Notes: a model not told the origin generated them from the sequence alone. A stretch of DNA of 36,193 nucleotides from a virus (UHGV-0315046); one strand, 5' to 3'. Numbered from the stretch's first letter, positions 1-5,599 are shown. Program-made: numbers and translations.

Positions 1-253
1 TCACTCTGCCAGATGGCGCAATGCCATCTGGTATCACTTAAAGGTATTAAAAACAACTTTTTGTCTTTTTACCTTCCCGTTTCGCTCAAGTTAGTATAAA
101 AAAGCTGAACGCGAAACATTAAAAAACATTAATATCAATGTGTTACAATATCTTTAGTCTAAAAAATAGACTACATGATGCTACAAAACACAACATATCC
201 AGTCACTATGAATCAACTACTTAGATAGTATTAGTGACCTGAGACAGAGCATT

Positions 254-292
254 AGCGCAAGGTGATTTTTGTCCTCTTGCGCTAATTTTTTG
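254..292 (+). terminator. Putative rho-independent terminator: 8-bp stem AGCGCAAG/CTTGCGCT followed by a T-run
   Basis: Perfect inverted repeat agcgcaag...cttgcgct followed by aattttttgtc; no ORF of 60 aa or more anywhere in 1-683. Confidence 0.35.
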
Positions 293-608
293 TCAACGCA
301 CTGGGTTAGTTGAATTTACAACCATGCTCAGTATCTCGACAAGCGCAGAGAAATGATGCAGTGGTGGGCGGACTGGCTTGATGAAAAGGTGGAGTGACCC
401 ACCTTAACCCTTATCGAATAGCGCAAAGCCTTGCAATCCAGTGCAAAGCTTTGTGTGTCTCAGTTTTTTCTCACAAAACATAATTCATTCAATTTAAATA
501 TCATCGTTATCATGAAAAGTATCTTTTAATAGATATTTTTATTTCTTGTGATGTAACTTCCTTGGTTGATAAAAAAACATTAACCCACCATAAACGTATG
601 AAATCATA

Positions 609-654
609 AATTATACTACAAAAGGCTTTTCTTCGTCGGCAAGGAAAGCCTTTT
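609..654 (-). terminator. Putative intrinsic terminator downstream of the tailspike gene (hairpin works on both strands)
   Basis: Inverted repeat aggctttTc...gaaagcct about 30 bp past the tailspike stop, flanked by T/A-rich runs on both sides. Confidence 0.45.
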
Positions 655-683
655 GATTGTGTAATAAAATATTGGCAGGCTGA

Positions 684-2531
684 TTATAATGATGATATTA
701 AATAGTATTCAACAAGTGTTGGTAAGGAAACACCAACAGGTGTTGGTCTTGATATTGTTATTGTTGTTCCTGAAACTGAAACAGTGTCCATTGAGTTTGC
801 AGCATCAGTTGGAATTACGCTGGCAGAATATATGACGCCAGAAATTGGGTTTGGGATGTCTGCAGTTCCTGATGTAGCTCCGGGTGACATAGGTACAGTT
901 ACCTTTCCTCTAGTTAATTTATTGTTATTAACCCCAAAGTTATTGTTTCTATCTTTTGGTGAGTTTAATAAGGTAAGTGATGTTATGTAATTACCGTTCA
1001 ATGAGAGACCGTCAATATCATCAAACAACAAATCACTAGCAAACATACATCCATTGATATTAATATTTCTTGATGTTTTTGAATAAATTGATTTATCACC
1101 ACCAATTATATTTACTCCCAAAACATTAACATTACTGACATTGTTTAAAGATATACCTATATTGTTATTGATAGGGTTATTGTTTTCACACCTAATTTCC
1201 ACTCCTTCTATATTACGAAGAACTGAAGGCGTCTGAGATCTAAAGTCTATTCCAACAAACTGATTAATGCTGTCACCTTGTGCGGCAATCCAGCAATCTC
1301 TTACAGAAAAAACAGAATTGTTATTTTCAAGAATTATCCCAGTTGACCCTACGAAATCAATATCGACATTCGAAAGATGCATATAAAGGCTACCTTTTAC
1401 CCATATCCCAACGTTATTTGAGATACACATTGTCTCACCATCAATAATTATCCCCTCGCTTATCACTTCACCACCAGACCATGAGTAAGTTTCTGGTGCA
1501 ATATCTATTCCTATAGACGATGGTTGAGACAATCCCTTTCCTGTGAATTTACATCCTGATATATGTATACTAACACACTGACCAAGCAATCTAAGACCAA
1601 TATTACACCCACTAGCTCGGCAGTTTGTCATTGAGCTGTGCCACCAGCCTTGCATTTCAAAACCTATTGAACAATTTTGTACCGTGACGCAGTCAAAATT
1701 AAGAGCGTAAACTTGCCTTATTACTGTATCGCTTTTTTTTAAGGTAGTTCCTATCCCCTTCACTATATCGTTTCCAGTAATGGTTATGTCACGAATAAAT
1801 GCACCTGCTGTTGTAGGGCCATAATCAAAACATATAATATAAGCATTACTATTACTTAAAATATCTCCTATTGGCCGTATATGAGTTCCGTTTCCACATC
1901 CGAACAAATTAATTCTATCAGGGATAATAATAGTTTCACTAATTCTATACTCTCCTGCTGGAAGAAATACATTACATCCAGATGGATATGAACTCTTTAG
2001 GTCTTGAAGACAGTTTTTAATTGCTGTTGTGTCATCATTGACGCCATCAGCTTTAGCTCCCCAACTGAAAACAGAAAAGGTCATTGCATTAAACAAATGT
2101 TGAGTCTGTGGAACCGCTCTCGGAAAAGGTTGTTTAACAGCAATTAGAGAATCTCCCATTCCTTCGGATGGGCTTGATAACCTTTTTTCAAGCTGATCAG
2201 GATCATACTTCAGCACATTCGGAAAATAGAACTGCTGTGCACCATACGCATCATAAACAGCCATAGAATGGCCTTGCACAGTTACGAATTTGGCAATCTG
2301 TCCGTTATATACAGGATACCCGCCAGCGTTAATGATGATTGGTTGCGAAACAGGAACGTGAGAGCCGTCTTCATTCTCTACATAAACCTGAATCCGGTTT
2401 TCAGGATTTACCGGGTCAGTGTCAATTTTCCCGATATAAATTTCGCCATTGGCTACGGCTTTAAAAGAACGCGCCATAGTGAAGAGTTGCGAAGGCATAC
2501 TCACTACAACATTGGCTGTAATGTCTGTCAT
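684..2531 (-). CDS. Tailspike protein: P22 gp9-type N-terminal head-binding domain fused to a divergent beta-helix receptor-binding domain
   Basis: 615-aa ORF. The first ~110 aa ([29 protein letters not shown]...VLKYDPDQ) match the conserved P22/Sf6 tailspike head-binding domain as I recall it; the remainder is Asn/Gly/Ile-rich with repetitive beta-helix character and lower GC. Confidence 0.9.
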
Positions 2532-2709
2532 TTAATTTGCTCCAGATACAAGGAATCGCCGCAGCATGGCTACGGTTGATATTTGTTTGGTTTTTGAACT
2601 ACGAAAATTTCGTAGTGCTATCCATCAAGGCCATCGCCGCTGAGTTGCTGCGGTGAATTTTGGGCATAAAAAAACCCAGCCGAAGCTGGGTCGTTGCGTT
2701 GGTTATCTG

Positions 2710-3624
2710 TCAGTAGTTATGTACTGAAGGAGGTAATTCTTTATTCTTAAGTCTCATCCATGCGGAAAGATTCGTTGGTCCGTCTGGCTCATTAATATCA
2801 ATATCTCGTGTGTGGTTTATTAAAACGTCTCTCGCCATTCCTATAACATAAGAGAACTCATGACCGTAGTCGTAGCATCTGCCGGAATAGTTCGATTGAA
2901 TTTGTTTCAGCGCCGGATACAGTTCGCGGAATAATGCCTGTGAGCGGTTGGCATAATCCCATAACCATACAAGGCTGTTTGCTTCTTTTGCAGAAAGCTC
3001 GTTGGTTTTCTTCTCTTGTTTGCCGATTAACTCGCCTTCAAGCGGAACGCGAGCTGCAAGTGACAGAGCTTCGGTAAACTGCTCATCGCTGATTTCTTTG
3101 TATGAACACCCAAAATGAGATTTCAGTGACGACCACATGGTGATCATCGCCTTAGCCTGTTTTTCTTTTGGCAGAGACTGACCGCGACTCATGACGAGTT
3201 GTTTAATGGCTTCCTGCTGTTCAGTGGTGATTTTTCCCGGCAACGCCTTTTTAGCTTTCGGTGTATTTCCGTAAGACCCCGTTTTACGAATGGATGGCAA
3301 AACTTCAGCTGTCACCCATTTGCGGAATTTGTGCGGGACTGAACCTTTATTGACGGCATCACGGCAGCGCAGAACCAATGTATACATACCTGATTCGCTC
3401 ACAATGCTTAAATTCTGCTCACCACCAAGGGTGTAACTTAAAGTTACTCCCTTCTCATCGTCATCAAGTGCAGTAAGCGCCTTGCGTGAGTTAGTCAGGG
3501 TTAAAGCATCACAAACATCTTTTGCTACAAACCACGGCTCACCGCACTTGTTGATGACGCGGATTTCACTGTCGCCGAATTTGAAGATGGTGAAATCGTT
3601 TTGTGCCTTTGCTATACTTTTCAT
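2710..3624 (-). CDS. ant: Antirepressor Ant (immI region)
   Basis: 304-aa ORF with an N-terminal Bro-N/AntA-like segment ([15 protein letters not shown]), placed between arc/mnt and the tailspike as in P22 immI. Confidence 0.7.
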
Positions 3625-3686: not shown

Positions 3687-3878
3687 TCAACTTTTATCAG
3701 CGACTTCAACTGGAATACTCTCTAGCTTTTCATCTAACCCCTTCTCGCCATGCATGAAAATAACAATATCTGTAACGCATGAGTCACAAATTGCTTCTTC
3801 GGTATTTTTTGACACAACAAAGCCCCTGCCAGTCGTTTCTTTACTACACCCACAAAAACAACATCTGCGGTTTTTCAT
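3687..3878 (-). CDS. Small Cys-rich (zinc-ribbon-like) protein between arc and ant
   Basis: 63-aa ORF with CCFCGC...CDSC (CxxC...CxxC); its ATG overlaps the arc stop as ATGA, suggesting translational coupling. Confidence 0.45.
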   Translation of the reverse strand: MKNRRCCFCGCSKETTGRGFVVSKNTEEAICDSCVTDIVIFMHGEKGLDEKLESIPVEVADKS

Positions 3879-4399: not shown

Positions 4400-4849
4400 T
4401 TAGTCAAACATAGTGTTTCTAAAGTCTCTCGCATACCCTGCTAACACTCTCATTCTATTATGATTGTTAGCAGACATGTGAGCTACAGGATGAAAAAGAG
4501 CAATCAATGAATACCTGTTCTCATCAAAAAGATTTTGTGCATAAACGAGAGCGGTATTGGATGTTTTATGCCACTGCAACTTTTGCGGTGTGCTGATATC
4601 TGTGCCATTTTTTATTGGCTCAAATTTATTTTCACCAATTGCTAAATGAAGGTGCATAAGACCTGCATCTTCAATATCAGGAGGACGATGATAAGAGGTG
4701 TCTCTGCCAAAATAGCTGGGCAACGTTCCCGTAGACTTGTAGATGATAAAATCATCTACAAGTGTTTGTTTTAAATCAGGAAACTCAACAAAAACCGGGG
4801 AGAAAAAATAGTCAAAACTATCCTGATTATATTCCACGGTTACTTGCAT
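4400..4849 (-). CDS. YafO-like toxin candidate (ribosome-dependent mRNA interferase family)
   Basis: 149-aa ORF. Motifs DFIIYKSTGTLPSYFGRD, MHLHLA, ALVYAQNLFDE and NNHNRM align with my recollection of E. coli YafO; not verified by search. AT-rich relative to flanking structural genes. Confidence 0.45.
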   Translation of the reverse strand: MQVTVEYNQDSFDYFFSPVFVEFPDLKQTLVDDFIIYKSTGTLPSYFGRDTSYHRPPDIEDAGLMHLHLAIGENKFEPIKNGTDISTPQKLQWHKTSNTALVYAQNLFDENRYSLIALFHPVAHMSANNHNRMRVLAGYARDFRNTMFD

Positions 4850-4857
4850 GTTTTACC

Positions 4858-5424
4858 TCAGTGGAAGTTACCAGAGTGAAACACACGAGTCCCGTGCTCA
4901 GCAAGCGCACGCAAACCAGCCATATCTACGGAACTATCAAAAACAACCGGAACACATGAGCGTTGTTTAATAAGACTATTCAGGTTAGTTACGGCAGATC
5001 TAGCATCAGCAACAACGATATAGATATCTCTTGCGATCTCTTTAAAATCAGCAGAAGCTTCTTTGAATACCGATTTCATTGCCCCTTCAAGTCCTCTCAA
5101 TTGATGCTCTATCAATCGAGACTTTTCTGGTTCAATGATAGACAACACATTGTCTACATTCTCATCGGTAGCGTTTGCAAGAACACGATAAGCGTATTTC
5201 AGCATTCGAGACAATTCTTTAATCGAAGACACCGCCTCATGAAGCTCATCATTAGCCCGTTCACTGCTGAATGAGGATTGATGGTAAGCGTGCTGAACGT
5301 TATCAGTAACAACCACCTCACAACTGAACGCAGAAGCTTGCTGTAATAGCAAACCTATTGCGACTCCAGCTTTGGCAGCGTTCAAGCTAAACATTTCATC
5401 AATCCCATTAGTCTCATTGCTCAT
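4858..5424 (-). CDS. Hypothetical protein, upstream partner of the YafO-like gene
   Basis: Start refined to MSNETNG..., preceded by AAGGAGG at ~6 nt. 188 aa, predicted mostly helical, no recognised motif. Stop lies 9 bp before the downstream gene start, same strand. Confidence 0.6.
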   Translation of the reverse strand: MSNETNGIDEMFSLNAAKAGVAIGLLLQQASAFSCEVVVTDNVQHAYHQSSFSSERANDELHEAVSSIKELSRMLKYAYRVLANATDENVDNVLSIIEPEKSRLIEHQLRGLEGAMKSVFKEASADFKEIARDIYIVVADARSAVTNLNSLIKQRSCVPVVFDSSVDMAGLRALAEHGTRVFHSGNFH

Positions 5425-5599
5425 ACAAACCTCCTTCTTATCGGAGATTATCAATAGCTATGTATCCATTGAATACACGCTATGCGCAGTAATTCTACGT
5501 CACGTGATATCATTATGCAACCACCGTTCTATCACCGACTAACTTTACTCCCACTCCTATACATCATCTGGTATCCTGCTCAAAACTAAGGAGGTTGGT

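Follow-up and report, generated by a model that had tools for sequence, protein, structure and literature searches.

The tailspike gene at one end of a P22-like virus sequence raises the question of what its receptor-binding domain (RBD) is, how it came to stand behind a conserved virion anchor and which polysaccharide it recognizes. We analyzed this gene within the whole stretch of DNA available, 36,193 nt from the virus UHGV-0315046, which we call the window. In the ORF list the gene reads from ATG to TAA in 615 codons on the minus strand (positions 684..2531, with the TAA stop at 684-686), and a GGAG Shine-Dalgarno sequence is placed 8 nt upstream of the ATG. The same list holds no ORF of note in positions 1-683 of the window. 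We assigned the following features to the gene and to the sequence past its stop codon:

684..2531, minus strand: tailspike gene, with the Pfam domains Head_binding, Pect-lyase_RHGA_epim and Tailspike_C and a full-length match to Sf6 gp14 (PDB 7SG7, E = 1.3e-168)
2193..2531, minus strand: head-binding (virion attachment) domain, residues 1-113, a conserved P22-like module (PF09008, E = 1.1e-65)
2082..2192, minus strand: linker and N-terminal beta-helix cap, residues 114-150, with a motif of ten letters running on to TQH; GC still ~0.42, 43% identical to Sf6
942..2081, minus strand: body of the right-handed parallel beta-helix, residues ~151-530, low in GC and of Sf6 type (Phmmer against 2VBE/2VBK, AlphaFold2 and Foldseek)
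1455..1457, minus strand: codon GAG of Glu359, equivalent to the catalytic Glu366 of Sf6 (alignment and codon check)
1356..1358, minus strand: codon GAT of Asp392, equivalent to the catalytic Asp399 of Sf6 (alignment; the rows of wild-type 2VBE and of the E366A/D399A protein 4URR mark the positions)
699..908, minus strand: C-terminal beta-sandwich, residues 542-611, Tailspike_C (PF21519, E = 1.4e-16)
619..655, minus strand: hairpin followed by a U-run just past the stop codon (RNA fold -15.5 kcal/mol, z = -4.4, 0 of 200 shuffles as good), a probable intrinsic terminator carried within the cassette
391..683, minus strand: 3' flank of the cassette, without ORF, 30% GC for 434-683; in other phages only its last ~40-90 nt are found
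314..390, minus strand: 3'-end remnant (77 nt) of an IntS/Sf6-type integrase gene, a conserved boundary, 96% identical to the int 3' ends of Sf6 and Kapi1

The gene lies where a tailspike gene is normally found in a P22-like genome, closing the virion/immI region. E. coli Lederbergvirus (P22-like) phages such as E212, JEP4, Kapi1 and CUS-3 match about half of the window's first 25 kb at 92-95% identity, and the gene order runs from the ejection proteins through Arc/Mnt-like (Arc-family) genes and a Bro-N/P22_AR_C antirepressor to the tailspike and the prophage end. The first 12 kb are 100% identical to a metagenome contig in ENA (L010), and this contig continues into ybhB-bioA-bioBFCD-uvrB; the window thus represents a prophage that borders ybhB with its tailspike end. 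We therefore identify the gene as the tailspike gene of a temperate phage of P22-like (Lederbergvirus) type that is integrated next to ybhB-bioA in E. coli.

A preliminary description made from the sequence had called the protein a chimera of modules with a conserved head-binding domain, and this was borne out: the PF09008 match covers the full model over residues 1-113, with the N-domain structures of both P22 and Sf6 also matched, and a different RBD follows. At the protein level, residues ~117-221 gave matches of 40-50% to many tailspikes bearing other RBDs, a pectate-lyase-like beta-helix signature was found at residues 152-215 (Pfam, E = 8e-15), and similarity to other P22-like tailspikes fades at residues ~130 to ~175.

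The RBD itself clearly belongs with the Sf6 tailspikes, a small family, and has retained the catalytic residues of Sf6. A Phmmer search of the PDB aligned residues 120-611 over their whole length with the Sf6 structures 2VBE, 2VBK and 2VBM (E = 4.7e-101), while the matches of P22 tailspike chains are confined to residues 1-114 (E ~1e-48). The earlier view that the remainder of the protein is unrelated to the P22 receptor-binding domain was therefore correct, but its extension to Sf6, of which only the first ~110 residues were thought to be resembled, has to be given up, and the domain is no orphan beta-helix. Identity to Sf6 amounts to 46.7% overall, 90% over residues 1-113 and 38% over residues 115-615, with segments of 46% (251-430), 23% (431-540) and 52% (541-615); Sf6 was the best characterized relative, and near-identity to a characterized tailspike was not found.

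Structure prediction gave the same placement. The AlphaFold2 monomer model contains nearly all beta-strands and has a mean pLDDT of 70.6; in 10-residue blocks the values are mostly 75-93 at residues 151-330 and 371-510 and dip to 56-75 at 331-370 and 451-460. The best Foldseek matches of this model were Sf6 tailspike structures (E ~1e-32, TM 0.75 normalised to the target). From this moderately confident monomer model, a beta-helix followed by a C-terminal beta-sandwich is predicted that would be superposable on 2VBK.

Two further receptor-binding types were considered and rejected. For a domain of the P22 gp9 type, Foldseek returned E = 2e-9 and TM 0.2-0.28, and sequence similarity is absent past residue 114. 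This endorhamnosidase of a Salmonella phage shares the homologous head-binding domain, the role, the gene position and the right-handed beta-helix fold class with the window protein, but its RBD differs in sequence and in structure (TM < 0.3). For an endo-N-acetylglucosaminidase domain of the HK620 type, no HK620 chain appeared among the PDB sequence matches at E <= 1, and Foldseek gave 9-10% identity (E ~1e-8), ranking far behind Sf6. The active site lies within one subunit in P22 and between subunits in Sf6 (PMC10408124). With E. coli as the host and a domain of another type, the O-antigen specificity must differ from that of P22, in agreement with the preliminary description.

In the alignment Glu359 and Asp392 correspond to Sf6 E366 and D399, where the published Sf6 residue numbering equals the gene numbering minus one. 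Across an alignment of seven family members, six of them database relatives, neither residue varies, and the motifs around the catalytic carboxylates (one of 11 letters and D.D..G) are likewise invariant. In Sf6, Glu366 and Asp399 are the putative catalytic carboxylates at the inter-subunit interface (PMC9728967), and the E366A/D399A protein is hydrolysis-deficient (PMC7463171). The likeness to Sf6 gp14, the endorhamnosidase of a Shigella flexneri phage (2VBK, 4URR and 7SG7), extends to the three-part architecture (615 versus 623 residues), a head-binding domain and Tailspike_C that are 90% and 52% identical, an RBD homologous from end to end, the catalytic Glu/Asp pair and the same gene position in a P22-like genome. 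The differences lie in the RBD, which is only 38% identical and lacks DNA-level similarity there, has a GC content of 36% in the window gene versus 44% in Sf6, and is not followed by an oac O-acetylase gene: no oac was found downstream of the tailspike in the window.

The family to which this domain belongs is very small. Among 1.84 billion representative proteins, representatives reaching E <= 1e-30 fell into only 14 clusters at 50% identity, and the nearest relatives were P0002 (59%) and P0003 (53%), with all others at 38% or less. Relatives of the Sf6-type RBD were found at only two loci in IMG/VR, and a scan for the RBD pattern in one genome per GTDB species found no relative. NCBIfam holds no family-level model for the tailspike protein and gave a single sub-threshold galacturonidase match; identical or near-identical proteins from E. 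coli isolates are present in NCBI, where automatic annotation has called them 'endorhamnosidase' or 'phage tailspike protein'. Some 45 assemblies encode the protein, and the NCBI entries include ELM8236195, HCA4540263, HHL8383077, MFB1173628 and WP_073464430.

Within the family the anchor varies. P0002 has a Head_binding anchor, like the window protein, and its gene follows ejection-protein genes in a P22-like contig, but the anchor is only 51% identical and the GC content is 50% in the RBD and 54.5% in the contig; gene and phage being GC-rich, the host is presumably different. The anchor of P0003 is not of P22 type. The tailspikes of the Shigella phages SFN6B and Buco (which we take to be Jersey-like siphoviruses) and the metagenomic proteins P0004-P0007 share the Sf6-type RBD, Tailspike_C and the conserved catalytic residues (30-37% identity, E = 1e-64 to 1e-91). 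Their N-terminal anchor, however, is Tail_spike_N-like instead of Head_binding and belongs to another virion type; P0004 is encoded in a 43-kb siphovirus-like contig together with a tape-measure protein and PolA. The Sf6-type RBD on differing anchors illustrates RBD exchange across phage families.

For the window gene itself we observed a recent exchange of the receptor-binding cassette directly. By local blastn, DNA similarity to Sf6, 720R6, Kapi1 and JEP4 breaks off at gene nt 339-358 and is found again 200-300 nt after the TAA. A protein of exactly this sequence is encoded in the E. coli isolate GCA_040571685.1, where another P22-like prophage occupies the ybhB locus (L009). Window positions 311-2793 are 100% identical to this prophage, while the flanks carry 27 and 17 mismatches and are ~5% divergent. 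A third prophage with the gene, integrated at argW next to intS, was found in the E. coli genomes H5 and H6. Comparing the window with H6 we counted 24 differences over 2,263 nt, 23 of them in gene nt -39 to 216 and one in nt 217 to 2218, so that the crossover must lie inside the head-binding coding region; accordingly, window 314-2315 shows one mismatch to the argW prophage of H5/H6. In the H6 comparison the identity runs as far as position 314, and both comparisons, with L009 and with H6, place a downstream crossover at window ~311-314, bordering the integrase remnant (314-390). Three P22-like prophages that otherwise diverge thus share the gene-bearing block at 99.95-100% identity.

The same slot can hold another cassette. 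In the E. coli genome CFSAN061762 we found a P22-like prophage at ybhB with a genuine Sf6 RBD (99.7% identical at the nucleotide level) and an oac acyltransferase gene in 2,730 nt, and the same two conserved boundaries enclose the RBD and flank of the window in 1,802 nt; in the annotation of CFSAN061762 an incomplete ORF is present at the integrase-remnant boundary sequence. The window RBD and the Sf6 RBD with oac are alternative cassettes in one slot. The horizontal replacement of the receptor module that had been proposed earlier can therefore be read off from the identical block 311-2793 in L009, from H5/H6 and from the slot in CFSAN061762. Among 50,697 phage records a distant blastn search gave no DNA-level donor of the low-GC cassette, and only window ~434-481 of the 3' flank was matched. 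The modularity of anchor plus RBD with horizontal exchange is established, as is a link between Lederbergvirus prophage tailspikes and the host O-type (PMC10408124; PMC4159516).

We then compared the distribution of the gene with the O-antigen clusters of the hosts. The full gene is present in 2 of 5,426 complete E. coli genomes (H5 and H6), while more than 1,100 share the head-binding part only. The O-antigen cluster of H6 contains rfbBDAC, two rhamnosyltransferase genes, wzx and wzy annotated as 'O13/O129/O135 family' and a GtrA/GT2/GT87 module. A wzy gene of the O13/O129/O135 family was found in 27 of the 5,426 genomes (0.5%). True Sf6 RBD DNA occurs in three genomes, in full in CFSAN061762 and as remnants in LD93-1 and NCTC9967, and all three are among these 27. 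Among the complete genomes, both RBD types are thus found in E. coli only together with the O13/O129/O135 cluster, in five of five cases (hypergeometric p = 2e-12, or 1e-7 if the five are counted as three lineages). For the exact RBD type of the window this host link is formed by one lineage, H5/H6, the window itself matching the metagenome contig L010.

The carriers H5 and H6 have the O13/O129/O135 cluster, but PM06121, a strain with the same cluster, holds a P22-like prophage with an unrelated RBD, so that prophage RBD and O-type do not correspond strictly one-to-one. On the basis of this strain we rejected the idea that P22-like prophages in O13/O129/O135 strains always carry an Sf6-family RBD.

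The chemistry of these antigens bears on the substrate. In the passages of PMC7685785 and PMC12243508 that cite Perepelov et al. (2010), the O13/O129/O135 O-antigens are described as structurally related to those of S. flexneri, and the citation in PMC12243508 relates those of O13/O129 to S. flexneri types 1-5. The Sf6 tailspike is an endorhamnosidase that cleaves the S. flexneri backbone (PMC7463171). Since all five genomes with Sf6-family RBD DNA have the O13/O129/O135 cluster and the related backbone is cleaved by the Sf6 enzyme, the O13/O129/O135 O-antigen is the most likely substrate, and the protein is probably an endorhamnosidase acting on an O-antigen built on the S. flexneri backbone.

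From these observations we propose the following course of events. Residues 1-113 would dock the trimer on the tail hub, and residues ~115-615 form the receptor-binding and receptor-destroying module of Sf6 type, a beta-helix followed by the C-terminal beta-sandwich. By homology with Sf6 gp14, the protein is expected to be a trimer with active sites between neighbouring subunits, in which Glu359 and Asp392 would act as the catalytic carboxylates. As an endorhamnosidase it would bind and cleave rhamnose-rich O-antigen, most likely that of E. coli O13/O129/O135 with its Shigella flexneri backbone, and in this way bring the virion down to the outer membrane; the activity predicted from the Sf6 type is that of an endo-alpha-1,3-rhamnosidase on the S. 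flexneri-type backbone. The low-GC receptor module is a mobile cassette, swapped by recombination between the head-binding coding region and the downstream conserved boundary. Taken as a whole, this explanation (a P22-like prophage tailspike with an Sf6-type module on a mobile cassette and the O13/O129/O135 O-antigen as substrate) is the one we favor, and we consider it fairly probable.

The binding groove is the part of the protein where the likeness to Sf6 breaks down. We compared the six groove positions that were mutated in published Sf6 studies, and all six differ: V204, S246, T315, N340, Y400 and T443 of Sf6 correspond to a deletion, P239, G308, G333, F393 and S436 in the window protein, the deletion at the V204 loop comprising four residues. 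Judged by these alignments, the residues of an Sf6-like oligosaccharide-binding groove are absent, and the fine specificity is expected to differ: the catalytic scaffold is conserved and the binding groove retuned. Because the groove has diverged, the enzyme probably differs from Sf6 in, for example, its tolerance of side-chain glucose or O-acetyl groups.

The same divergence feeds the strongest alternative, namely that the fold and the catalytic machinery are retained on a protein that acts on another polysaccharide, an O-antigen or a capsule, and that the O-type of H5/H6 is a coincidence of lysogeny history. An RBD with 38% identity to Sf6 (23% in 431-540) and wholly changed groove residues at the probed positions may leave room for a different glycan; in addition, the unrelated RBD in PM06121 can be cited for this view, as can the reading of the O-type link from H5/H6 while the window's own match is a metagenome contig. 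However, a coincidence would have to account for five of five complete genomes with Sf6-family RBD DNA falling within the 0.5% that have an O13/O129/O135 cluster, and the tailspikes of P22-like prophages are known to track the host O-antigen (PMC10408124). We therefore regard a different polysaccharide as unlikely, while giving it real weight.

Within the favored explanation, that of an enzyme for the O13/O129/O135 O-antigen, the genes for glucosylation offer a possible reason for two cassettes. H6 and CFSAN061762 share 99.93% identity across their O-antigen clusters, but in CFSAN061762 the gtrB-like GT2 gene is interrupted by a nonsense mutation and GT87 is frameshifted from T9 to T8, a homopolymer change that could be a sequencing error or artefact or phase variation. 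The GtrA, GT2 and GT87 genes are intact in H5/H6, whereas most of this module is missing in LD93-1 and NCTC9967, which hold the Sf6-RBD remnants; the gtr-like module is thus intact in the carriers of the window RBD and mutated or deleted in the E. coli genomes with Sf6-RBD DNA. The host range of Sf6 is limited to S. flexneri serotypes X and Y (PMC8973906), and in a passage of PMC12243508 the O13/O129 O-antigen is placed closest to glucosylated S. flexneri type 5a. Tentatively, the two E. coli cassettes on one backbone might therefore serve different cells, the Sf6 RBD with oac for serotype-Y-like cells with broken gtr genes and the window RBD for glucosylated, 5a-like O13/O129 cells. If true, the window protein would be a natural enzyme for glucosylated O-antigen of the S. 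flexneri type, a substrate that is closed to Sf6. We note that the gtr-like module is disrupted in ~15 of the 27 O13/O129/O135 genomes anyway, so that the association between RBD type and module state is only suggestive; a rough p of ~0.08, obtained by hand multiplication of proportions, is not significant.

Some tailspike families include esterases, and the window protein could in principle be a spike that retains the Sf6 scaffold and only binds, or modifies its receptor without hydrolysis, as an inactive adhesin or an esterase. The invariance of both Sf6 catalytic carboxylates and the surrounding motifs across the family speaks against this, as does the Pfam search of the protein, which gave no esterase or SGNH domain, and we consider such a spike very improbable.

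The remainder of the gene had been described as AT-rich, and the GC profile agrees: the receptor-binding part has a GC content of 36.2% (GC3 24.5%), compared with 43.9% (GC3 41.6%) in the head-binding part and 47.0% in the window, where none of the other stretches of 1,506 nt falls under 40.1%. The drop begins near codon ~165, past the domain junction. Low GC as a trait of the Sf6 tailspike family was rejected, because the RBD has 44% GC in Sf6 (GC3 38%) and 50% in P0002 (GC3 54%). Low-GC RBD cassettes are common in other E. coli P22-like tailspikes (37% in JEP4, 39% in PM06121), and low GC alone is therefore unremarkable. That it merely reflects amino-acid composition or local mutation bias in a vertically inherited gene without module replacement, as the richness of the domain in Asn, Ile and Ser might suggest, can hardly be right in view of the GC3 difference within one gene, the relatives that are not GC-poor, and the exchange itself, which is directly visible in the abrupt ends of homology and in the 100%-identical blocks shared by divergent prophages.

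Modular tailspikes and the exchange of receptor domains are textbook biology, and our findings leave this general understanding unchanged. What they add is a second, uncharacterized lineage of the Sf6 tailspikes, a very small family, and a connection of this family in E. coli with serogroups O13/O129/O135, whose O-antigens have the backbone of Shigella flexneri. Should modified forms of this backbone that are closed to Sf6 be accepted by the enzyme, it could serve to detect and type S. flexneri and O13/O129/O135 strains. With the same tolerance it might also be used to prepare defined O-antigen oligosaccharides and to study how a binding groove is retuned on a fixed catalytic scaffold.

We examined the prophage end in the window together with the edge of the tailspike cassette, which lie in the following positions:

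Window 1-433, and 12532 onward in L010 (the metagenome contig identical to the first 12 kb of the window): prophage end and host junction, at ybhB
Window 314-390: integrase 3'-end remnant of 77 nt, with 96% identity to the 3' ends of Sf6/Kapi1-type integrase genes

The host gene ybhB immediately adjoins window position 1 and is followed by bioA-bioBFCD-uvrB, and the prophage therefore sits in the classical lambda attachment region, on its ybhB side. In E. coli H5 and H6 the near-identical tailspike block is carried by an argW prophage. The integrase remnant is also where the tailspike cassette has its shared downstream crossover; at the equivalent position in E. coli CFSAN061762 an incomplete ORF is annotated. 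We also observed that this remnant is of the Sf6/Kapi1 type although the window prophage abuts ybhB.

Upstream of the tailspike gene we considered four further ORFs:

Window 2710-3624, minus strand: antirepressor, 304 aa, with a Bro-N N-terminal domain
Window 3687-3878, minus strand: Cys-rich ORF, 63 aa (CCFCGC...CDSC)
Window 4400-4849, minus strand: YafO-family type II toxin homologue (PF13957)
Window 4858-5454, minus strand: 198-aa ORF

The antirepressor gene is also mosaic: L009 (an E. coli isolate with a different P22-like prophage) and L012 carry a P22_AR_N version of 307 aa in place of the Bro-N version, and the sequences become homologous again from window ~3258, within the P22_AR_C half that they have in common. 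Between this gene and an Arc-like gene, the Cys-rich ORF, which gave no Pfam match, may encode a zinc-ribbon protein. The YafO homologue (Pfam, E 3e-22) is located directly downstream of the 198-aa ORF, for which no Pfam match was found; the pair is flanked by the gp16-like ejection gene on one side and the Arc/Mnt-like genes on the other, is also present in contigs L010 and L011, and may represent toxin-antitoxin or defence cargo of the immI/sieA region.

Two features concern E. coli strains of the O13/O129/O135 cluster:

L013 3501-5807: P22-like tailspike, 768 aa, argW prophage of PM06121
L002 31364-33133: GT87-family gene of H6, poly-T tract at nt 1347-1355

The receptor-binding domain of the PM06121 tailspike is unrelated to Sf6. 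The C-terminus of this tailspike gave matches to C-terminal domains of the endosialidase and neck-appendage type (PDB 3GW6, 3GUD, 9VVR). The poly-T tract is T9 in H5 and H6, where the gene is intact, versus T8 in CFSAN061762; the same split gene is found, by annotation only, in about eight other O13/O129/O135 genomes. This difference could be a homopolymer sequencing error or could reflect phase variation of O-antigen glucosylation.
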